A DNA stretch of 64,000 bases from an uncultured delta proteobacterium (GTDB taxonomy: Bacteria > Desulfobacterota > Binatia > Binatales > Binataceae): contig CAVQVD010000015.1 of assembly GCA_963717045.1 (NCBI GenBank), forward strand, positions 687,747-751,746, written 5' to 3'. This document shows, one piece after another, positions 3,061 to 18,397 of the stretch. Made by a program: the position numbers and the translations under genes. Within the stretch, counting starts at the first letter, position 1, and every line of letters starts with the position of its first letter. The notes under the pieces are model-generated. The model saw only the letters and a program-made list of their open reading frames with translations. It had not been told where the DNA came from and made no database searches.

Positions 3061-3216
3061 GCGTTTCCTCTCACTCCGCCATTACCGCCGCGGACCCGAG
3101 TGAGATAAGCTGGGGGCGGGGCTTACGGCATTTTTTGGCATTTAAGGAACGTAAAGGCTAAGCAAAAAGCACAGCGATTCCTTCGCACAAGGTCGCTAAA
3201 GGAGCTGAGATAAACG

Positions 3217-4569
3217 ATGCATTTCATGTGGTTTACGGAACGGGCGTACCATTACGATCCTGAGGTTGATCCGGCGAAGTACCATGCGTTGGAGAATCAG
3301 ATCGTCGGACTGCGCAGCTTCTTCAACACTCCTAATCGCTTCTTCGAACGCGAGCACGGGGCGAAACTGCTCAACCAGTATCTCGACGAGAAAATCTACA
3401 CCGATTCCGAGCTCAAGAATTTCGACGGCGTGATGCTCAACGAGCATCATGGCACGCCATTTTGCCTCGGCGCGGTGATGGATGTCGAAGCTTCGATCCT
3501 GGCCAAGACCACCAAGCGGCTGAAGATGGTTCTGCTCGGCAATCCCGTCGCCACCGTCGCCAATCCGCTGCGCCTGGCGGAAGAGCTCGCCATGATTGAT
3601 CTCATCTCGGGCGGACGCCTGGTCTCCGGATGGGTGCGCGGTGCCGGTTCCGAGCAGTTCGCCAACAACACCAATCCGGCGCTTAATCGCGAACTGTTCG
3701 AGGAAGGCGTCGAGTTCATCGTCAAGGCGTGGACCACGCCCGGGCCGTTCCGCTACGAAGGCAAGCACTTCAATTTCCGCAACGTGAATCCCTGGGTGCT
3801 GCCGCTCCAGCGGCCGCATCCGCCGTTCTGGATTCCCGGCCTGGTGAGTCCCGATACCGCCTTCTGGTGCGCCCGTAAGCGCTATCCGTACGTCGCCCTC
3901 GCAACCAGGCTGCAGCCAACGATCGAGCTGTGGGACTTCTATGCCAAGGCCGCGGCTCAGGAGGGCTACCAGGCGGGGCCGGAGAATTTCGGTTACCTGC
4001 AGCCGGTGGTGGTGGCCGATACGCAGGAGCGGGCGGAAGAACTCGGCAAGCGGATTCTCTTCGGCGGCGCCTTTGCGCACTTCGCGCGGCCGGAGTGGAT
4101 GTTCCCGCCGGGATACAATTCCAAGGCCGCGACCAAGCGGCTGGCCGAAGTGAATTTCGGCGCCAACGCGGCGGCCAAGTCGCTTTATGGCGACGGCGGC
4201 AACAACGAATCCCAGGAACAGATCGAGGCCGTCAAGCAGCACATCTACAACGGCTATCCGGACGTCCTTAAAGACTACGTGATGATTGCCGGCACGCCGG
4301 ACAATGTGATTCCCAAGCTCTGCAAAGTGCTCGACGTCCTGCGGCCGGGAATCTTTTCGTTCTGGCTCGACGGACCGGTGCCCGCGAAGGACCGGATGCG
4401 ATGTCTTGAGTTGCTGAACCGCGACGTGATCCCGGCTATGCGTGACTACGGCAAGACGCTCGGACTGGTCGACCCGTTCAAACGCGCGCCCGGCTCGCGC
4501 CTCTTGCGCGCGGGGGTTACACCCGACCCAGTGAGCAATGCCGACGCGCTCGCCTCGATAGGTGCCTGA
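3217..4569 (+). CDS. LLM-class (luciferase-like) flavin-dependent oxidoreductase
   Basis: 450 aa, luciferase-like monooxygenase pattern (LNEHHGTPF, LRLAEELAMIDLISGGRL); strong GGAG RBS. Confidence 0.75.
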   Translation: MHFMWFTERAYHYDPEVDPAKYHALENQIVGLRSFFNTPNRFFEREHGAKLLNQYLDEKIYTDSELKNFDGVMLNEHHGTPFCLGAVMDVEASILAKTTKRLKMVLLGNPVATVANPLRLAEELAMIDLISGGRLVSGWVRGAGSEQFANNTNPALNRELFEEGVEFIVKAWTTPGPFRYEGKHFNFRNVNPWVLPLQRPHPPFWIPGLVSPDTAFWCARKRYPYVALATRLQPTIELWDFYAKAAAQEGYQAGPENFGYLQPVVVADTQERAEELGKRILFGGAFAHFARPEWMFPPGYNSKAATKRLAEVNFGANAAAKSLYGDGGNNESQEQIEAVKQHIYNGYPDVLKDYVMIAGTPDNVIPKLCKVLDVLRPGIFSFWLDGPVPAKDRMRCLELLNRDVIPAMRDYGKTLGLVDPFKRAPGSRLLRAGVTPDPVSNADALASIGA

Positions 4570-4587
4570 AGCGAAATTGACGCAACC

Positions 4588-4620
4588 CCTGGGCCGGACT
4601 GCCAATCCGGTCGGCCCAGG
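4588..4620 (+). terminator. GC-rich stem-loop (9-bp stem CCTGGGCCG/CGGCCCAGG) downstream of LLM gene, no U-tract
   Basis: Perfect inverted repeat seen in sequence 19 nt after stop codon; separates LLM gene from CuMMO operon. Confidence 0.35.
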
Positions 4621-4701
4621 GTTCACACCCCGCCCCCCTCCCTTAATAAGCCGCAAATCCAATCTTGCCTGAGAACTCCCGTTCCCGGAGGTCTTCGGCT
4701 G

Positions 4702-4730
4702 TTGACGGCGGCTGAAAATCGGTCTAAACG
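4702..4730 (+). promoter_or_regulatory. possible sigma70-like promoter for CuMMO operon (TTGACG-17 nt-TAAACG)
   Basis: Hexamers with 17-nt spacing about 40 nt upstream of subunit C start; weak -10, speculative. Confidence 0.2.
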
Positions 4731-4769
4731 GGCATAAGGAAAGCAAATTTCTTAGGCGAGGGTCTGCTT

Positions 4770-5606
4770 ATGAGCTCTATCGAAGAGGTGGCGGCAGGAC
4801 GTCGTCCAACCGATTGGCTGGTCGGTTGGAAAACCTTATTTGTCGGATGCGGGCTGCTGATGGCCTGCAACATTTTCCTCTGGATCTGGGACTATAAATA
4901 CGCCTTCACCGCGGGACTGGATTCCTCGAGCCGCGCCTTCGCGCTTCATTATCGCACGCTGTTCTGGGCTGAACTGCTGAGCGTTGGGGCCTTTGCAGGC
5001 GTGTGGTACGGATGGCTGGTGCGCACCGGCCGGACTCTCGTCGGCGAATCGATACCGCCCGCCGAAGAGACTCGCCGGGTCGTGGTGCTGTGGGGAATTA
5101 TCGGAGTTACCAGTCTCTCGATCTATATCGAGGCGAGCTTTTGGCCCAACTGGGACGGTGCGTGGCATCAGACGATGGTGCGCGACACCGCGCTCACTCC
5201 TACGCACATCCCGATGTTCTATTTTTTCTTTCCGATGTCGGTGGTGCTCGCTTTAGGAGCATACCTCTACGGCCGATTCAGGTTGCCGGCAGTCTACGGC
5301 GGCGAGAAGGGATTTCCATGGTCGTTCTTTCTGCTGATTGCCGCCGCCGTTCTGGAATTCGTCGAGGTCGCCTTCAACGAATGGGGTCACAGCCTCTGGA
5401 TGTCGGAGGAATTCTTCTCGGTGCCGTTCCACTGGCCATTTGTCATTTATGGATGGCTGGCGGGCGGAATGTTCGCGGTGTGGGGCGAAACCATCCTGCA
5501 TCTGTTCCAGATCGAAAAAGAGGGCGCGCGCGGTCGAAGAACTGCCGACGCATACGGCTGCCGCCGGCTAAGTGGGCCAGCGGTCCGCGGCTCTTTTCAA
5601 ACCTGA
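4770..5606 (+). CDS. pmoC: copper membrane monooxygenase subunit C (PmoC/AmoC family)
   Basis: Aligns along whole length to AmoC/PmoC: FWPNWDGAWHQTMVRDTALTPTH (Asp/His/His metal ligands), NEWGHSLWMSEEFFSVPFHWPFV. Confidence 0.9.
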   Translation: MSSIEEVAAGRRPTDWLVGWKTLFVGCGLLMACNIFLWIWDYKYAFTAGLDSSSRAFALHYRTLFWAELLSVGAFAGVWYGWLVRTGRTLVGESIPPAEETRRVVVLWGIIGVTSLSIYIEASFWPNWDGAWHQTMVRDTALTPTHIPMFYFFFPMSVVLALGAYLYGRFRLPAVYGGEKGFPWSFFLLIAAAVLEFVEVAFNEWGHSLWMSEEFFSVPFHWPFVIYGWLAGGMFAVWGETILHLFQIEKEGARGRRTADAYGCRRLSGPAVRGSFQT

Positions 5607-5656
5607 CGTCCTATTGGATCTTGCTGAGATTTTGCTGACATCTTGCGAGGAGAGGC

Positions 5657-6454
5657 ATGGCGACAGCACCATCGATAACGGCGGCCGCCGCGGCGGAAAG
5701 ACAACGCAGGCTTGCGCTGCGTGACCTGCTCAACGCGAAATATCAGTGGATCGATCGCACCTGGGACGCGGTCTTCTGGATCACGGCGATCTTTGTTGTC
5801 GCCGGAGCCGCGGATATAACGCGGCTGCTGTTCGCTGGCGACTGGGATTTCTGGACCGATTGGAAAGATCCGCAATGGTGGCCGGTGGTCACCGCCTTCG
5901 CCACCATCATCATTCCGTCCGCGCTCCAATACATTCAGTGGGCCGCATGGCGCTTTCCCACCGGTGCGACCTACACCTGCGTATGCCTCTTCATGGCTTC
6001 GTGGATCGGACGTTACTTCCAATGGCACGTTGCCGAGGGCTATCCGATGAATTTCGTATGGCCGATATCGACGATCCCGGCGGCCATAATTCTCGACTGG
6101 CTATTGATGAGAACGAAGAGCTTCGTACTGACGTCGCTTTTCGGGGGAGGGATATGGGCGGTGATGGTGTGGAGTTTCAACTACATCCCGCTCGCTCCGT
6201 TCCTCCAGCCGATGCAATTCATGCATCACATTCTTACCGTCGCGGACGTCCAGGGAATCGTTTACATCCGCACCCAGACACCCGAATACATGCGGCATAT
6301 CGAGCGCGGCGCGTTGCGCAGCTTTCTCGGTGAGACGCAGTACGTATCGCTGCTGTTTGGCGGCACGCTGGCGATGCTCGGTTATTGGATCGGCCAGTTC
6401 ATCGGGCGCTATCTCGCCGTGTGGCCGATTGGCAGATACATCAAGACCGTTTAA
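5657..6454 (+). CDS. pmoA: copper membrane monooxygenase subunit A (PmoA/AmoA family)
   Basis: LLFAGDWDFWTDWKDPQWWPVV ... YIRTQTPEYMRHIERGALRSF, near-identical to hallmark AmoA/PmoA blocks; GGAGAGG RBS. Confidence 0.9.
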   Translation: MATAPSITAAAAAERQRRLALRDLLNAKYQWIDRTWDAVFWITAIFVVAGAADITRLLFAGDWDFWTDWKDPQWWPVVTAFATIIIPSALQYIQWAAWRFPTGATYTCVCLFMASWIGRYFQWHVAEGYPMNFVWPISTIPAAIILDWLLMRTKSFVLTSLFGGGIWAVMVWSFNYIPLAPFLQPMQFMHHILTVADVQGIVYIRTQTPEYMRHIERGALRSFLGETQYVSLLFGGTLAMLGYWIGQFIGRYLAVWPIGRYIKTV

Positions 6455-6475
6455 AGCCGCTTCGGGGAAACAGCT

Positions 6476-6709
6476 ATGCGCATCGTCTTTCGCCTCTCGC
6501 GCGCCACGATGGTCGCGCTCTTATGGACCGGTATATTCGCCGCCCGCGCGTATGCTCACGGAGGAATTGCCGGACCCGACGAACTTGGGCCGCCGGTAAT
6601 CACCTCGGCCGTACTTGGCATTGGGGGCTATTGGCTAATGATGCTGTGGCCAGCGCGCAGCCGTCCTGTCGTCAACAACAGACGCAAATCGGCGCGTCAC
6701 GCGCGATGA
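6476..6709 (+). CDS. small hypothetical exported membrane protein encoded between subunits A and B (signal peptide, N-terminal His after predicted cleavage, one TM helix, basic tail)
   Basis: 77-aa ORF with GGGGAA RBS-like element; signal peptide ...ARAYA|HGG mirrors PmoB signal peptide ...PRAFA|HGE; fills otherwise 310-bp A-B gap. Confidence 0.35.
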   Translation: MRIVFRLSRATMVALLWTGIFAARAYAHGGIAGPDELGPPVITSAVLGIGGYWLMMLWPARSRPVVNNRRKSARHAR

Positions 6710-6764
6710 ACGCGATGAAATAGAAGAGTCTTCAGGCGATTTCTACGCCATTCGGGGAGGCGGA

Positions 6765-8015
6765 ATGCGAATGCGACTTCCGGTTGTTTTGTCAGCGGCT
6801 CTCTTCTTGCTGTCCGCGTCGTACGCGCCGCGCGCCTTTGCCCATGGCGAAGCGGCGGACGAGCCGTTCCTCAAGGATCTGACGGTCGCCTTCTATGACG
6901 TGCACATTTCTCCGACCGAGATCAAAGTAGGTGAGCCGGTTACGATCACCGGAGCGGTAAAAATTCTCGAGACCTGGCCCTATACGCTGGATCCGCCGCA
7001 AACCGCCTACATCACGCCGGTAGTTCCAGGACCAGTATTCGCGCTCACTGACCGCGAGGTGAATGGAGCTCAGACCCCCGGCTCAATCCTGGTCGACAAG
7101 GGGGGAATCTATCATTTCAGGATGGTGATAAAGGGCCGCCGTCCCGGAAACTGGCACGTGCATCCGGGAATCGCGATCCAGGGTACCGGAACTCTCATCG
7201 GCCCGGGCGAGTGGGTCGCGGTTGAGCCGGGCGCCGAGCCCTTCAAGATGGACGTGACGCTGCTCACCGGTCAGACCGTCAACCTCGAGCACTATGGCGG
7301 CAGCTTCGTCTGGTGGTGGTCATTCGCCGGATTCCTGATTGGCATGGTCTGGCTGCTCTATTGGACCGTGCCCAAGCGGACTGTCACCCGTCTCGCGGTG
7401 ACCACGCAAATTCCGGTCAACGACGATGCGCCTGACATCGGACTAATCACGCCGCGCGATCACATGTGGATGGACGTGCTAGCCGGCGCGATAATCGCGA
7501 TACTCGTGGTCGGCTGGATTTACATGGCGGTGAAGTTTCCCGTGCGGCTGCCGCAACAGACGGTGCGGTTTGCGCCCGAGGTCATCGACCCCAGTACTCA
7601 CTCGGCCCAGGTGATGAAGGCGGATTCGGTTTACGATGAGCAAAGCGACACCTTGGTTATAAAGGTAACGGTTAAGAACACCGGGACCACTCCGTTGAGA
7701 CTGAAGCAGTACATCATGGCGATGGCTACGTTCGTCAACGGCGACAAAGACGAACTGGCCAAGGCTGGGCCGGCGCATTACGTCGGCCGGATGCAGGTCG
7801 AGCCCGACTCTCCGATCGAGCCCGGCCAGACTGCAAACCTGCAATTGAAGATCAGCAGCCCGCTGTTCGACGAAGAACGGCTTATCCCGCTGCATGATCC
7901 GCAGGAACGAATCGCGGGGCTGTTGCGCTTTACCGATCCGAAGGGCCATGAGGATCTCGTGACCCTGAAGACCGATCTCGTGCCAACGGAGTTTCGCCCG
8001 CAATACCTGCCTTAG
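6765..8015 (+). CDS. pmoB: copper membrane monooxygenase subunit B (PmoB/AmoB family)
   Basis: Signal peptide then HGE (N-terminal His ligand), KGRRPGNWHVHPG (HxH ligands), TLLTGQTVNLEHYGG, two TM helices and C-terminal cupredoxin-like domain. Confidence 0.9.
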   Translation: MRMRLPVVLSAALFLLSASYAPRAFAHGEAADEPFLKDLTVAFYDVHISPTEIKVGEPVTITGAVKILETWPYTLDPPQTAYITPVVPGPVFALTDREVNGAQTPGSILVDKGGIYHFRMVIKGRRPGNWHVHPGIAIQGTGTLIGPGEWVAVEPGAEPFKMDVTLLTGQTVNLEHYGGSFVWWWSFAGFLIGMVWLLYWTVPKRTVTRLAVTTQIPVNDDAPDIGLITPRDHMWMDVLAGAIIAILVVGWIYMAVKFPVRLPQQTVRFAPEVIDPSTHSAQVMKADSVYDEQSDTLVIKVTVKNTGTTPLRLKQYIMAMATFVNGDKDELAKAGPAHYVGRMQVEPDSPIEPGQTANLQLKISSPLFDEERLIPLHDPQERIAGLLRFTDPKGHEDLVTLKTDLVPTEFRPQYLP

Positions 8016-8037
8016 CGCGGACTGGATAAGGAGCGAC

Positions 8038-8583
8038 GTGAAGATCAAACGACGGGAGTTCCTGCACAAGAGTGCACTTGTGGTCGCCGGCGTATCCGCG
8101 GCTGCCGCCGGTGTAGCGGTCACCGGCTTGGCCGCCGAATGGACTGCCCATCTGAAGAAATTTCGCCCGCATGAGGCCGAAGCGCTGCTCAAGATGGCGC
8201 GGCAGATATTTCCGCACGACCGTCTAGACGATAGCTACTATATAAAAGTAGTCGAAGACCTCGATGCAGAGGCGTCAAGCACGCCCGCTACCGCCCGCAT
8301 GATAAGTGCGGGAGTAGCCAATCTCGATCGTTCGGCCAAGGGCAACTTCGCCGCTCAGCCGGCTGTCGACCAGGTCGCCGCGCTCAAGAAGATTGAGGAT
8401 ACGCCATTCTTCGAAAAAGTTCGCAGCACGGAACTGGTTTCGCTCTATAACAACCAGGAAGTCTGGAAGGTTTTCGGATACCAGGGCGCCTCCTATCGCT
8501 TCGGCGGCTACCTGCATCACGGCTTCGACGATTTGAACTGGCTGCCTCAACCACCCGAAGTAGCAAGCCCGAAACCAGGCTGA
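8038..8583 (+). CDS. gluconate 2-dehydrogenase subunit 3 family protein (Tat-exported small subunit of membrane flavoprotein dehydrogenases)
   Basis: Twin-arginine signal KRREFLHKSALVVAGVSAAAAG; 181 aa; immediately precedes GMC flavoprotein. Confidence 0.65.
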   Translation: MKIKRREFLHKSALVVAGVSAAAAGVAVTGLAAEWTAHLKKFRPHEAEALLKMARQIFPHDRLDDSYYIKVVEDLDAEASSTPATARMISAGVANLDRSAKGNFAAQPAVDQVAALKKIEDTPFFEKVRSTELVSLYNNQEVWKVFGYQGASYRFGGYLHHGFDDLNWLPQPPEVASPKPG

Positions 8584-8598
8584 ACGGAGAGTTGCGAC

Positions 8599-10167
8599 GT
8601 GGCTCGATTCGATTCGAAGGACGACTCCGTAGTCGTGATCATCGGTTCGGGGGCGGGCGGAGGTACGCTCGCCAACGAGCTCTGCCAGAAGGGCTTAAAG
8701 GTTGTGCTGCTCGAGGCGGGGCAGCGCCAGTCGCTGCAGACTTTCCACAACGATGAATGGTTCGCATTCAAACAATTGGCCTGGCTCGACAAGCGAACGA
8801 CCTCTGGCAGTTGGCGCGTAGCGAAAGACTTTCCCAATCTTCCGGCCTGGACCTGCAAGACGGTCGGCGGAACGACCGTGCACTGGGCGGGGGCCTCGTT
8901 GCGCTTTCAGGAGCACGAGTTCAAAGCCAAGACTACCTATTCTAGTGTCAGCGGTGCGAACCTTCTCGACTGGCCGATAAGTCTCGCGGAGTTGGCGCCT
9001 TACTATGCCAAGGCCGAAGACAAGATGGGGGTTACGAGGACCAACGACATTCCCGGATTGCCTGGAAATAACAATTTCAAGGTGATGTACAACGGCGCGA
9101 CGCGAGTAGGATACAAGACCGTGCATACCGGGCGCATGGCGATTAACAGCCGGCCCCGCGATCGCCGTTCGTCATGCTGGCAGATGGGATTTTGTTTTCA
9201 AGGGTGCAAGTCGGGAGCTAAATGGTCCACTCTCTATACGGAGATTTCAAAAGCCGAGGCTACCGGCAAACTCGACTTACGGCCTGGATCGCAGGCGCTG
9301 CAGATTCAGCACGACGGCAACGGCAAGGCGACCGGCGTGCTGTATGCCGACAAGGACGGCAAACATTTCGTACAGAAAGCGCGTATCGTGTGTCTGGCGT
9401 GCAATTCGATCGAGAGCGCGCGACTGCTGCTCAACTCGGCCTCGTCGAAATTCCCCCAGGGGCTGGCGAACTCATCCGGCCAGGTCGGCAGGAACTACAT
9501 GCGGCACACGAGCGGATCCGTTTACGGCATTTTCGGCAAGCCGGTGCATATGTATCGCGGTACTGTGATGGCCGGGATTATCACCGACGAAGCCGAGTTG
9601 AATACCAAGCGCGGCTTTGTCGGAGGGTTCGAGATGGAAACCATCTCGCTCGGAATGCCATTTGCGGCCGCGTTCCTGGATCCGGGAGCGTGGGGGCGCG
9701 ACTACGCGAGCGTGCTCGAACAGTTTCCCAACATGGCTGGGATGTGGATCGTCGGAGAGGACATGCCGCAGGCCACTAACGCCGTGACGCTGCATCCAAA
9801 GGAAAAAGATCAATTCGGCTTGCCGATTCCGAACGTGCACTACGACGATCATGCAAACGACGTCGCCATGCGCAACTACGCATATAAAAGAGGCGCCGCG
9901 GTGTATGATGCCGTAGGAGCACTCAAGACGATCGCGGTCCCGCCATATCCTTCGACTCATAACCTCGGCACCTGCCGCATGAGCGAACGGCCCGCCGATG
10001 GCGTTTGCAACAAGTGGGGCCAGACTCACGACGTGAAGAATCTCTTCATCTCGGACGGCAGTCAGTTCACGACCAGCGGCGGAGAAAATCCCACGCTGAC
10101 GATCGTGACCCTGGCCATCAGGCAAGCCGATCACATCGCCGCCGAGAGCACGAGGCGTAACCTCTAG
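8599..10167 (+). CDS. GMC-family FAD-dependent oxidoreductase (flavoprotein dehydrogenase large subunit)
   Basis: N-terminal VVVIIGSGAGGGTLANELCQKGLKVVLLEAG dinucleotide fold and GMC-like C-terminal block. Confidence 0.85.
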   Translation: MARFDSKDDSVVVIIGSGAGGGTLANELCQKGLKVVLLEAGQRQSLQTFHNDEWFAFKQLAWLDKRTTSGSWRVAKDFPNLPAWTCKTVGGTTVHWAGASLRFQEHEFKAKTTYSSVSGANLLDWPISLAELAPYYAKAEDKMGVTRTNDIPGLPGNNNFKVMYNGATRVGYKTVHTGRMAINSRPRDRRSSCWQMGFCFQGCKSGAKWSTLYTEISKAEATGKLDLRPGSQALQIQHDGNGKATGVLYADKDGKHFVQKARIVCLACNSIESARLLLNSASSKFPQGLANSSGQVGRNYMRHTSGSVYGIFGKPVHMYRGTVMAGIITDEAELNTKRGFVGGFEMETISLGMPFAAAFLDPGAWGRDYASVLEQFPNMAGMWIVGEDMPQATNAVTLHPKEKDQFGLPIPNVHYDDHANDVAMRNYAYKRGAAVYDAVGALKTIAVPPYPSTHNLGTCRMSERPADGVCNKWGQTHDVKNLFISDGSQFTTSGGENPTLTIVTLAIRQADHIAAESTRRNL

Positions 10168-10787
10168 TGGCGCGACTTTTTTTCGGTCGAGGTAATGGCG
10201 TATCGTCGGCCTTGCTCGTTTTGGTGGCGATGCTTGCGCTGGCGCTTCCGCTCGCCGCGCGGGCTGAACTCGGCAATTCCGGACGGCCACGCACGGCGCT
10301 CAGTCCCACCGACGGACTGCCAAAAGTAAGCCTGACAGATCAAAATGGCAGGGCGATCTCGCTTTCGTCATTGAAGGGCAAGCCCGCGCTGGTCGCGTTT
10401 ATTCACACCTCGTGCGAGGGACCCTGCGAGCTGATCACCGCACAAATGAAATCGGTGGCGCGCGACCTGGGTCCCGGGTTCAAATCGAAAGTCACGATGG
10501 TCTCGATCACGACCGAACCCAAGGAGGACGGATCGCGCGAGTTGCTTGCCTACGCCAAGGCGCAAGGTGTGGACGCCGATGGATGGGTGTTCCTGACCGG
10601 GGCGCCGGCGAAAATCCGCCGCCTGCTGGCCCTGTACGGAGTATCGGCCGAGGACGACGATTCGGCTCACGTCCTTGAGCTGTTTCTGCTCAGTGCCGAT
10701 GGTGTCGGAATGCGCCGCTACAACGGTGTTGCGACACGACCGGAAACGATCGCCGCGGATATCAAGAAAACCGCCTTGCCTCACTAG
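10167..10787 (+). CDS. SCO1/SenC family copper chaperone (thioredoxin-like)
   Basis: Signal/TM anchor, CEGPC (CxxxC) copper-binding motif and downstream conserved His; GTG start overlaps stop of GMC gene. Confidence 0.8.
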   Translation: MARLFFGRGNGVSSALLVLVAMLALALPLAARAELGNSGRPRTALSPTDGLPKVSLTDQNGRAISLSSLKGKPALVAFIHTSCEGPCELITAQMKSVARDLGPGFKSKVTMVSITTEPKEDGSRELLAYAKAQGVDADGWVFLTGAPAKIRRLLALYGVSAEDDDSAHVLELFLLSADGVGMRRYNGVATRPETIAADIKKTALPH

Positions 10788-11303: not shown

Positions 11304-12563
11304 GTGTTAATGAGTTCATCGGCGATAGAGCGCCTCTACCACGAGGAGTTCGGGCGGATCCTCGCTACTGTGATTCGCCTGGTCGGCGACTTCGACCTGG
11401 CGGAGGAGGCAACGCAGGAGGCATTCGCCGTGGCGCTCGCGCAATGGCCGCGCGATGGCGTGCCTGCCTATCCTCGCGCCTGGGTGGTCAGCACCGCGCG
11501 TCACAAGGCGATCGATCGCTTGCGGCGCCACGGACGCTTTGCCGAGAAGCTGGACGAACTGGCCGGCGGCCTTCACACAACCTACGAGGAAAACGCGATC
11601 GCGGGAGAAGCGCAAAGCTCGGTGCCCGACGAGCGTCTGCGGCTAATCTTCACCTGCTGCCATCCGGCGCTCGCGCTCGAAGCGCAGGTAGCCCTTTCGC
11701 TTAGGACGCTGTGCGGACTCTCGACCGAGGAAATCGCACGCGCCTTCTTCGTGCCCGCCGCCACCATGGCGCAGCGGCTGGTACGGGCCAAGCGCAAGAT
11801 TCGCAAAGCCGGCATCCCCTACGAGATTCCGCGCGCTGACGTGCTGCCCGAGCGCCTCGACGCGGTGCTCGCAGTCATCTACCTGGTCTTTAACGAAGGT
11901 TACTCGGCAACGGCCGGCGAGGCGCTCGTGCGTGCGGAACTATGCCGCGAAGCGATCCGCCTCGGGCGCATCCTGTGCGAGCTTTTGCCCGGCGAGTCAC
12001 TCGGCGCGCGTGACGGGGAATCGAATGGACTGCTGGCGCTGATGATGCTGCACGACTCGCGCCGCGCGGCGCGCACCAACGCCGCCGGCGACTTGGTGCT
12101 GCTCGAAGATCAGGACCGGTCGCTGTGGAACCGCACGCAGATGGAAGAAGGCCTCGCACTGGCCGCCTTAGCGATGCGCGCGCCGGAGCACGGCCCATAC
12201 GCGTTGCAGGCCGCGATTGCCGCGGAGCACGCCAGGGCCCGGCGCTCCGCGGATACCGACTGGCGCGCGATCGCCGGGCTCTACGACGCGCTGCTTCGGG
12301 TGCGGCCGACGGCCGTGGTTGAACTGAACCGGGCGGTGGCGATCGCGATGGCGAACGGGCCGCAGGCTGGCCTCGACGCGATCGCCAGGCTGAAGGCGAA
12401 CCATGAACTGGACTCCTACTACCTACGCTGGTCCGCCGAGGCCGACCTGCTCCGCCGGTTGGGCCGCCGCGCCGAAGCAGAACAATCCTATCGCCAAGCG
12501 CTCGAACTCGTCACTTCAAACCCCGAGCGAAGGTTTCTCGAACGGCGGATTCAGGAGTTGTAG
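11304..12563 (+). CDS. ECF-type RNA polymerase sigma factor with C-terminal TPR-like extension (COG4941-type)
   Basis: Sigma-70 region 2 and 4 features (AFAVALAQW, HKAIDRLRR, LRTLCGLSTEEIARAF) plus about 200-aa C-terminal domain. Confidence 0.8.
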   Translation: MLMSSSAIERLYHEEFGRILATVIRLVGDFDLAEEATQEAFAVALAQWPRDGVPAYPRAWVVSTARHKAIDRLRRHGRFAEKLDELAGGLHTTYEENAIAGEAQSSVPDERLRLIFTCCHPALALEAQVALSLRTLCGLSTEEIARAFFVPAATMAQRLVRAKRKIRKAGIPYEIPRADVLPERLDAVLAVIYLVFNEGYSATAGEALVRAELCREAIRLGRILCELLPGESLGARDGESNGLLALMMLHDSRRAARTNAAGDLVLLEDQDRSLWNRTQMEEGLALAALAMRAPEHGPYALQAAIAAEHARARRSADTDWRAIAGLYDALLRVRPTAVVELNRAVAIAMANGPQAGLDAIARLKANHELDSYYLRWSAEADLLRRLGRRAEAEQSYRQALELVTSNPERRFLERRIQEL

Positions 12564-16842: not shown

Positions 16843-18397
16843 ATGGCTGAGGCTAGCAAACTTTCCCGCCGCTTGAGCAGCCAAGACGCCTCATTCCTAT
16901 ACAACGAGACGCCGCACGGCCCGCTTCACGTCGGTCTTCTTCAGACCTTCGAGGGCGAGATCGAGTTTGACCGGCTGATAAATCACCTCGAGCGTCGTAT
17001 CCACCTTTTGCCGCGCTACCGGCAACGCCTGGTGTTCGCACCGTTCAATCTGGCGCACGCGACCCTCGAGGACGATCCCCAGTTTGAACTGCGCAATCAC
17101 GTCAAGCGTCATTTGCTGGAGCGCGGCGCCGGGGACGCCGAACTCGGCCTCGGCGGCGATGCGGGCTAACGAACCCGCGCTCGAGCGGAGCCGGCCGTTA
17201 TGGGAGTTGCATCTATTTCGAGGGCTCGCGGACGGACGTTCGGCGCTGTTGTGGAAGATCCATCATTGTATAGTCGACGGAGTCTCGGCCTTACAACTGA
17301 TTGCGACCGCGATGGATCTGAGGCCCGATGCTCCGGCGCCCGCACCAGAGAAGGAGCCGTGGAAACCTGCGAGACTGCCCGACAGCTCAAGGTCGCTGTT
17401 GGATGCGGCGGTCGCGCTGGTCCAGAGTCGCCTCGACGAATTGCACGAGGCGGGGAAGCTGTTGAGCGCCCCGGCCGACCTGGCCGAGCGGAGCGCGGCG
17501 ATGACCAACGCCGCGGCCCAGATGTTCCAGATGATGTCGCGGCCGGTGGTCGCGGCGCCGTGGAATCTTGGATTCGTAAGCCGGAGCCGCTCGCTCGCCT
17601 GGCTCAGAGTTTCGTTCGGCGACCTGCGCGCAATTCGCAGCGCTCTGGGGGGAACCGTCAACGACGTCGTTCTGAGTATTCTGAGCGAGGGCGCGGCGCG
17701 GTACCTGAAAGATCACGAAGTCGCGACCGAGGGGCTGCCGCTACGAATCGGATGCCCGGTCAACGTGCGGCGCGAGAGCGAAGCCGGCGCGATGGGTAAT
17801 CGGGTTTCGATGATGTTTCCCGAATTGGCCGCGACGCCGATGGACCCGATCGAACGCTATCGCTCTGTGGTCCGCGAGACTGAGCGGATAAAGGCGGCGC
17901 GCGAACCGCAGGGGATGGACTTGCTAACGGCGGCTGCCGACTCAGTTGCGCCGAGCCTGCAGGACCTGAGCTCAAAGATGACCAACGCCGCGATCGAGGC
18001 CGCGACTCGGCTTTCCGAGTTCAGCGGAGGGATCGCCCGAATGATCGCAAGGCCTGCGATAGGAATCAACTTCATCGCGACCAACGTACCGGGGGCGCAG
18101 GTTCCGCTGTACCTGGCGGGGCGGCGGATGCTCGAGTTCATCGGCCTGGTGCCATTGGCGGGCAGCTTCGGTTATGGCGTGGCGATTCTGAGTTACAATA
18201 AGAGCTTGTTTTTCGCGATGGCGGCGGAGCCCCGTTTGATGCCCGACGTGGAATTGATGAAGTCGCGTATCGCCGACGCCTTCGCGGATCTCAAGGCCGC
18301 GGCACAAAGCGTGATGCCCGAGCAAGAGCGATCGATTCGCGCAGCCGGGAACGCGCCGAAGCGCGATTCGGCGATGGCCCGATTAACTGAAGCGTAA
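16843..18397 (+). CDS. wax ester synthase/diacylglycerol acyltransferase (WS/DGAT) family; reading frame broken by apparent 1-nt indel near 17150-17170 (two ORF fragments 16843-17169 and 17084-18397)
   Basis: N-terminal fragment LSSQDASFLYNETPHGPLHVG and C-terminal fragment with catalytic HHCIVDG motif lie in adjacent frames and together give a full-length WS/DGAT. Confidence 0.65.

Follow-up and report, generated by a model that had tools for sequence, protein, structure and literature searches.

A 64,000-nucleotide stretch of DNA from an uncultured delta proteobacterium of the Binataceae (contig CAVQVD010000015.1; referred to below as the window) carries an operon for a copper membrane monooxygenase (CuMMO) with a small gene, X, between the genes for subunits A and B. 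X is a real gene under purifying selection, and it is probably an overlooked fourth component of the monooxygenase. Its 77-residue product has a predicted signal peptide, a short conserved segment expected to begin with His after cleavage, one transmembrane (TM) helix, and a basic tail.

Evidence that X is a gene comes from its homologues rather than from its size. The length of an open reading frame (ORF) is no evidence by itself, because this G+C-rich region is full of spurious overlapping ORFs, with examples of 40-200 codons abundant in all frames. A protein search recovers 152 X homologues of 59-94 aa; none is named, and Candidatus Binataceae is the sole organism label among them. When 1.84 billion representative proteins are searched with a profile, 90 clusters (50% identity) are returned at E<1e-3, and many of these are 100-130 aa in length. 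Scanning 185,579 species genomes with PmoA identified 80 loci whose PmoA is 73-99% identical to the window xmoA product (which is ∼45% identical to actinobacterial HmoA); essentially all are metagenome-assembled genomes (MAGs) labeled Binatia or "delta proteobacterium". An earlier note on this DNA, made from the letters alone, had proposed looking for the same small ORF between pmoA and pmoB of related operons. All loci having both xmoA and xmoB (81/81, a count that includes the window and three earlier loci) carry a family member in the A-B gap, whose size varies between 213 and 1003 bp. X likewise occupies this gap in all complete metagenome loci whose PmoA is at least 73% identical, and the distant member P0112 (54% identical) also lies in a C-A-X-B operon.

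The pattern of substitution is that of a coding sequence. A 32-codon core compared across 48 loci has a pN/pS of 0.33 (pS, at 0.67, is saturated), and nucleotide diversity at the three codon positions is 8.1, 5.8, and 18.6, the third being ∼2-3 times the first and second. The His predicted to become residue 1 of the mature protein is encoded by CAT in 14 and by CAC in 32 distinct sequences, and the amino acid is fixed. Gly2, Gly3, Pro7, Gly11, Pro12, Pro13, and Pro32 of the same numbering each use all four codons and are invariant or nearly so. Invariant residues specified by varied codons, together with the third-position excess, indicate purifying selection on a protein, which excludes both a chance ORF and a decaying duplication remnant.

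Two oddities were seen among these loci. Three of the 81 X copies are frameshifted after the conserved N-terminal motif (L004, 4820-5050; L010, 4651-4974; L027, 4792-4950); all three are in MAGs with isolate names starting 'MFD', and assembly indel errors seem likelier than pseudogenes. Five xmoCAXB contigs (L041, L043, L054, L056, and L058) are titled as Klebsiella pneumoniae, uncultured Enterobacteriaceae, Verrucomicrobiae, or Acidobacteriota MAGs. These titles on Binatia-type operons probably reflect binning or labeling errors.

In the window, the four genes are consecutive ORFs on the plus strand in the order C-A-X-B:

4770..5606, plus strand: xmoC, CuMMO subunit C and the operon's first gene (278 aa; Pfam AmoC, E 1.4e-44)
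5657..6454, plus strand: xmoA, CuMMO subunit A (265 aa; Pfam AMO, E 1.9e-59)
6464..6469, plus strand: GGGGAA, a Shine-Dalgarno-like element 6 nt before the X ATG, as read from the sequence
6476..6709 (stop codon included), plus strand: gene X, the 77-aa precursor of a single-pass membrane mini-protein, from the ORF and its homologues
6765..8015, plus strand: xmoB, CuMMO subunit B, with a signal peptide ending PRAFA/HGE (416 aa; Pfam Monooxygenase_B, E 8e-84)

The earlier note had described a 310-bp A-B gap holding a 77-codon ORF and a GGGGAA element, and all three are where it placed them; the gap runs from the xmoA TAA stop at 6452-6454 to the xmoB ATG at 6765, and 55 nt separate the X stop from the xmoB start. 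Its larger claim, that X is a genuine fourth gene of the operon, is borne out by the homologues, by the 81/81 operons, and by the coding-type substitutions. The GGGGAA element is weak evidence alone because a purine-rich, Shine-Dalgarno-like motif is not consistently kept upstream of X in related loci. Promoter and terminator scans over 4400-8700 found nothing above shuffled expectation and no sign of separate transcription of X or xmoB, and a search of 6300-6900 against Rfam gave only sub-threshold chance matches, which is no indication that the gap encodes a known RNA family. The xmoA, xmoB, and xmoC products score well under the NCBIfam equivalog cut-offs for ammonia monooxygenase (AMO) and particulate methane monooxygenase (pMMO), which marks the enzyme as a divergent CuMMO.

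With the predicted cut marked by a slash, the X product reads MRIVFRLSRATMVALLWTGIFAARAYA/HGGIAGPDELGPPVITSAVLGIGGYWLMMLWPARSRPVVNNRRKSARHAR. Four parts can be distinguished:

6476..6556, plus strand: predicted Sec signal peptide, residues 1-27, read from the sequence (AlphaFold2 helix 2-27)
6557..6595, plus strand: conserved extracytoplasmic motif HGGIAGPDELGPP, from the alignment, in which His28 is residue 1 after predicted cleavage
6593..6655, plus strand: TM helix, approximately P40-A60, with conserved G48, Y52-W53, and W58-P59 (AlphaFold2 helix 39-61)
6656..6706, plus strand: basic tail with seven Arg/Lys and one His, placed in the cytoplasm by the positive-inside rule

The earlier note had read this same architecture from the single sequence, and family alignments indicate that signal peptide, A-x-A/His site, single TM helix, and basic tail are kept by selection. 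The leader has a basic n-region (R2, R6, and R9), a 14-residue hydrophobic core, ATMVALLWTGIFAA, and A-Y-A before the His. It is predicted to be an ordinary Sec/signal peptidase I leader whose cut is in register with that of PmoB. Nearly all related loci encode a leader of 24-38 residues with a small-x-small motif before His. The His directly after the predicted cleavage site is invariant in all signal-bearing members.

Conservation is concentrated in the mature N-terminus and the helix. In the homologue alignment, a variable leader and a variable basic tail flank the invariant block A/HGG[IM]AGPD[ED]LGPP, which is followed by a helix with Gly, Tyr-Trp, and Trp-Pro (PPVITSAVLGIGGYWLMMLWPA in the window). 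In the broad family, down to ∼25% identity, Ala at -1, His at +1, one Pro ∼12 residues on, and the helix-end Trp-Pro are invariant, Tyr is nearly so, and the spacing from His to Trp-Pro is constant at 28-30 residues. The family-conserved helix residues (small Gly, Tyr-Trp, and Trp-Pro) look like a helix-packing face. The tail varies in length from ∼15 to 90 residues as well as in sequence. Long-tailed members, with 60-90 cytoplasmic aa (e.g. L025, L028, L055, L060-L082; P0123-P0160), carry a basic motif, (I)RIKRKPRLRVIE or PRLRKIE, and end in a conserved RRKASDG/V or RRAADG; the window X belongs to the short-tail subgroup.

The mature ectodomain is only ∼11 residues long (HGGIAGPDELG) and contains no Cys, no Met, and no second His; its other conserved polar residues are only Asp35 and Glu36. 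These make the N-terminal segment net negative and the tail is positive, suggesting an N-out/C-in topology by the positive-inside rule. An AlphaFold2 monomer model places helices at residues 2-27 and 39-61, with a loop of low confidence between them (pLDDT 66), and offers nothing beyond this topology. X has no match in Pfam, NCBIfam, or PHROGs. Against a PDB chain library, phmmer and profile searches gave nothing better than E ∼1 and no CuMMO chain among the matches; the library includes 9cl1-9cl6 and 9leg, with the presence of their helix chains among the searched sequences unchecked.

Small ORFs with a related signature adjoin xmoB in other lineages, as seen when metagenome loci are arranged by PmoA identity to the window protein. 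At 73% or above, the order is C-A-X-B and the product consists of signal peptide, A/HGG..DE..GPP, TM helix, Trp-Pro, and basic tail. At ∼60-63%, the order is again C-A-X-B, with a gap of 250-290 bp and a product consisting of signal peptide, His, a Gly/Glu-rich (acidic) stretch, TM helix, and W[DE]P. At ∼63-72%, the A-B gap is 8-51 bp and a small ORF directly 3' of xmoB reads M-(6-10 hydrophobic)-AAH[QE]GEEF-TM-RW; AAHQGEEF-TM is an example. At ∼45%, the level of the actinobacterial hydrocarbon monooxygenase (HMO), the gap is 4-26 bp and the post-hmoB ORF reads M-x(5-11)-LAHGGQ[ML]T[GS]DE[MI]A-TM-RR. This last group comprises the plasmid operons of Mycolicibacterium chubuense NBB4, Rhodococcus sp. 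WAY2, and Mycobacterium dioxanotrophicus and a Nanopelagicales contig. Its post-B ORFs, including that of NBB4, have the form LAHGGQMTGDEM-TM-RR with no signal peptide, and they are conserved in 18 protein clusters.

The actinobacterial ORFs, of which Mycch_5908 of M. chubuense NBB4 is an example, are probable counterparts of X, judging by shared sequence features. The spacing H-G-G-x4-D-E-hydrophobic is identical in the window X and the post-hmoB proteins, and both have one TM helix, Arg/Lys residues, and a position adjoining xmoB. On the other hand, the Mycch_5908-type ORFs have 5-11 residues before His rather than a signal peptide, follow B, and lack YW...WP in the helix. Aligned by hhalign, the X and actinobacterial families match over 13 columns (AHGG..DE) with a probability of 64.6% and an E of 6e-5. 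The strict pattern AHGG.{4}DE[LIMVF] finds only these X-type genes in 1.57 million six-frame residues. A looser His-acidic-TM pattern has 116 matches in 2.36 million six-frame residues, and within L084-L169 it has a single match away from xmoA/xmoB, inside PmoC. A family, 'XmoX', can be proposed for genes that either separate xmoA from xmoB or follow xmoB directly and whose products have Ala-His, then a pair of acidic residues after a spacer of 1-7 residues, then a hydrophobic residue and a TM helix; the window X fits this pattern. In an outgroup, the pxmABC-type operon of a Methylomagnum plasmid, no small ORF is annotated in or beside the operon and the loose pattern finds no match.

Some operons have more than one small gene. 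In L073 (∼4795-5799) and L114 (∼4205-5209), the A-B gap is 1003 bp and the architecture is C-A-X-X-B. The L114 gap contains two different X-family paralogues in tandem, AHGTMPDADEFGPP... and AHGGVPDPEELGPP..., and one member was seen in L073. In actinobacterial HMO operons, a second small single-TM ORF, Y, directly follows the AHGG-motif ORF and appears conserved, giving the order C-A-B-X-Y (L084, 6322-6666; L086, 6358-6705; L087, 5192-5395). Examples are MMNNTQHLVAMGDYSGPL... in NBB4 and MNYTVLIMTMVALLLGVFLPLSALAYMMVK... in Nanopelagicales.

The existence of the X ORF is already published; what is new is its conservation, its motif, and its relatives. Among Binatota, Murphy 2021 listed 8 genomes with "CAxB or CAxxB (x, hypothetical protein)", leaving x unanalysed (PMC8262859); the C-A-X-X-B loci described above match the second form. 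A literature search for a named fourth gene in such operons returned only unrelated papers.

Extra components of CuMMOs are known from several systems, and X resembles them in kind. Cryo-electron microscopy (cryo-EM) has located supernumerary single-TM helices in bacterial enzymes: a 23-residue protein in Methylocystis sp. Rockwell pMMO, a 46-residue unannotated ORF product in Nitrosomonas europaea AMO, and a further helix, 'AmoD', in N. halophila AMO (PMC11725843, PMC12804982). Like X, these are tiny single-pass membrane proteins missed by annotation; they were found associated with a CuMMO, as is proposed for X. The Rockwell helix is N-out/C-in by implication, since the AMO helix, with its N-terminus in the cytoplasm, is described as opposite, and this is the topology predicted for X. 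Unlike X, the cryo-EM helices are not described as products of amo or pmo operon genes, nor is a cleaved signal peptide or a conserved N-terminal His attributed to them.

Archaeal enzymes provide a second comparison. Archaeal AMO has extra subunits, AmoX/Y/Z, of which AmoX co-migrates with the enzyme (PMC10030591), and CuMMO operons of Thermoplasmata (Ca. Angelarchaeales) include a hypothetical amoX/pmoX and are arranged C-A-X-B (PMC9038741). Like X, amoX and pmoX are small membrane-protein genes, conserved with the enzyme and located by amoA or between A and B. The Thermoplasmata gene order is identical to that of the window, and AmoX shares no Pfam family with X. The archaeal extra subunits raise the number of TM helices per protomer from 10 to 14, nearer the bacterial enzymes, while the window A, B, and C proteins already align to bacterial pMMO subunits over nearly their full length.

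PmoD/AmoD proteins have a cupredoxin-like CuA-type periplasmic copper domain and a C-terminal TM helix (PMC6189053). As predicted for X, they are operon-linked, exported, membrane-anchored CuMMO accessory proteins with a proposed copper role. Identity of X with PmoD was considered and rejected: the X ectodomain of ∼11 residues has no Cys or Met and no folded copper domain, and X matches no Pfam or NCBIfam model. Compared with the cryo-EM helices and the archaeal subunits, X appears from its sequence to be distinguished by its place inside a bacterial operon, a predicted cleavable leader, and an invariant His-acidic motif.

X does not replace a missing part of the window enzyme. PmoB begins MRMRLPVVLSAALFLLSASYAPRAFA/HGE, and its His27 corresponds in alignment to the first residue of the mature PmoB chains in PDB. 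Alignment to PDB chains shows the CuB ligands of PmoB intact (the N-terminal His and the HxH pair) and the CuC (D, H, H) and CuD (N, H, H) ligands of PmoC conserved. Compensation by X for a lost ligand or helix was accordingly rejected: none of these ligands is missing, and the alignments of PmoB and PmoC to pMMO subunits span almost the whole proteins. X is supernumerary and not a replacement. The first His of the bis-His site, His48 of Methylococcus capsulatus PmoB, is replaced in the window PmoB (TVAFYD versus TIHWYD). Loss of the His48 equivalent has also been reported for Methylocystis pMMO and for AMO.

The predicted N-terminal His of X invites comparison with histidine-brace copper sites, which are formed by an N-terminal His after signal cleavage in PmoB CuB, CopC, and lytic polysaccharide monooxygenases (PMC7529816). 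Like these proteins, X has a predicted A-x-A/His cleavage site that would free an N-terminal His, as does PmoB encoded 55 nt downstream. Unlike them, X has no second His and no β-sandwich domain, and its signal-less relatives keep the His internal. The earlier note had suggested a histidine-brace-type peptide; a classical brace within X alone is unlikely, because the ectodomain offers only Asp and Glu beside its one His. Nor would the N-terminal amine be a universal ligand, because the probable signal-less relatives carry the His internally. If the signal-bearing and signal-less families are related, the conserved chemistry would be a His plus carboxylates at the membrane interface rather than an N-terminal amine chelate.

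The reading somewhat favored here makes X a supernumerary subunit with a single helix, encoded in the operon, or else an assembly factor in tight association with the enzyme; either would place a His/carboxylate motif at the periplasmic face of the membrane. From the sequence features described above, we infer export, cleavage, topology, association with the enzyme, and metal binding. X would be co-expressed from inside the xmoCAXB operon, translated, exported by Sec, and act together with the monooxygenase. Signal peptidase I would cut after A-Y-A to leave a mature peptide of ∼50 residues, with the ∼11 N-terminal residues HGGIAGPDELG on the periplasmic face, one TM helix, and the basic tail in the cytoplasm. 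The helix may pack against the membrane domain of the enzyme via its Gly, Tyr-Trp, and Trp-Pro residues, and X would hold His1 and the carboxylates Asp8 and Glu9 within ∼5-12 residues of the periplasmic membrane surface. In established pMMO structures, this face is at about the level of the PmoC copper sites. The motif would then lie at the height of CuC and CuD, where binding or hand-over of copper is plausible. The position of X next to xmoB is fixed in related operons.

Several observations weigh against a subunit with such a motif. All canonical copper ligands of PmoB and PmoC are already present, and an SCO1 copper chaperone is already encoded in the cluster, making a chaperone role for X unneeded a priori. 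The mature ectodomain has a single His, and the internal His of the probable signal-less relatives implies that amine coordination of the histidine-brace kind is not the conserved mechanism. Homology of X to the post-B ORFs is supported by a short motif, with hidden Markov model scores of just 4-8 bits, and the PDB chain searches described above revealed no similarity of X to supernumerary helices deposited there.

One alternative is that X serves specifically to deliver copper or assist assembly: a metallochaperone tethered to the membrane would load CuB or CuC/CuD during biogenesis and be absent from the mature enzyme. A His plus Asp/Glu motif on a short flexible tether beside the membrane would suit this role, the operon also carries SCO1, and PmoD/AmoD provide a precedent for operon-linked copper proteins outside the core subunits (PMC6189053). 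However, the gene position between A and B suggests expression coupled to that of the subunits, the strongly conserved packing-type residues (G, YW, and WP) fit a stable helix-helix contact, and a single His makes a weak stand-alone copper site, leaving this alternative rather unlikely. X could also be a purely structural supernumerary helix that binds lipid, assists trimer or array packing, or stabilizes PmoB/PmoC, with its motif serving protein contacts rather than metal. The known bacterial supernumerary helices have been proposed to act through lipids and array formation and have no known metal role (PMC11725843, PMC12804982), and the canonical copper ligands are all intact without X. A merely steric role accounts poorly for two features: conservation is highest in the extramembrane His-Gly-Gly...Asp-Glu segment rather than in the helix alone, and the His-acidic signature recurs in otherwise dissimilar small ORFs by xmoB, pointing to chemistry. 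A purely structural helix is considered unlikely.

The remaining alternatives deny the peptide a function. X might be mainly a cis-acting leader ORF that sets xmoB expression by translational coupling or mRNA stability, with a dispensable product; it lies immediately 5' of xmoB, 55 nt away, and no promoter or terminator signal exceeds shuffled expectation inside the operon. A regulatory leader would not hold an amino acid motif invariant down to ∼25% identity amid synonymous variation, and the related ORF in sister lineages follows xmoB, where it is unable to couple to B translation. This role is quite improbable. Least credible of all, and very improbable, is the idea that X is a chance ORF in G+C-rich DNA or else a decaying relic left when the pmoB 5' end was partially duplicated. 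The region does contain many overlapping ORFs of like length, and the X and PmoB leaders both end RA[YF]A/HG, with family profiles that align by hhalign at 92.6% probability over 29 columns. That alignment ends right after AHG. The earlier note had described the X signal and cleavage site as mirroring those of PmoB; the common ending stands, but the likeness is confined to the signal peptide and AHG. Over the last 12 leader residues, X and PmoB of the same locus share 2.84 identities versus 2.65 in shuffled pairs (p ∼0.05), barely above chance pairing, which lends no support to recent duplication of the pmoB 5' end or to gene conversion with it. The note's suggestion of a duplication remnant is rejected, given purifying selection on X, in-frame conservation in 81/81 operons, mainly synonymous substitutions, and frameshifts in just three copies. 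The leader likeness may be generic to signal peptides cut before His-Gly, and it is possible that X took over a pmoB-like leader in the distant past, on arriving ahead of xmoB.

Three genes in the same orientation lie directly downstream of xmoB:

8038-8583, plus strand: Tat-signal small subunit (weak FAD-SLDH-like match; Pfam)
8599-10167, plus strand: GMC flavoprotein oxidoreductase (Pfam)
10167-10787, plus strand: SCO1/SenC copper chaperone, its start overlapping the GMC stop (Pfam)

The 8038-10787 segment also follows the operon in L001 and L002, there with a zinc alcohol dehydrogenase and cytochrome c, and looks like a conserved module for alcohol-product oxidation and copper supply. The presence of SCO1 in the cluster fits a copper-dependent system. 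An extracytoplasmic function (ECF)-type sigma factor with a DUF6596 domain and TPR repeats (11304-12563) and a wax-ester synthase/DGAT gene (17084-18397) lie less than 10 kb from the operon, and the DGAT fits hydrocarbon- or alcohol-based lipid metabolism. Directly upstream of xmoC is a luciferase-like flavin monooxygenase gene (3217-4569, plus strand). It is covered entirely by a 516-codon antisense ORF (3196-4746, minus strand), and long spurious ORFs of this kind arise readily in G+C-rich DNA.

CuMMOs, which include pMMO, AMO, and HMO, control the oxidation of methane, ammonia, and short alkanes, and they are very hard to express heterologously. Their active-site copper, assembly, and true subunit composition are still disputed. 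Cryo-EM studies of 2024-2025 revealed unannotated single-helix proteins without known function on pMMO and AMO (PMC11725843, PMC12804982). X is the first such candidate found here to be encoded within the operon and universal in a large environmental clade, that of the Binatia-type CuMMO, and it carries an invariant chemical motif, a His (N-terminal after predicted processing) and two carboxylates. A bolder and rather doubtful extension is that X and the signal-less post-xmoB counterparts, including Mycch_5908, form one family of essential fourth subunits of the hydrocarbon-type CuMMO clade, with the motif directly in a copper site, where it would complete or gate the PmoC CuC/CuD center or else serve as an integral device for inserting copper. 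If true, the lack of this small component would go some way to account for the loss of CuMMO activity on purification and for the difficulty of heterologous expression. A 2026 review states that HMO has already been expressed recombinantly in Mycobacterium smegmatis and that ligand mutagenesis is available for the system (PMC13058606). The probable counterpart after hmoB in cultured, genetically tractable actinobacteria makes a fourth component directly testable, and X-type genes of 60-130 aa are worth annotating and including in expression constructs and structural models of this clade.

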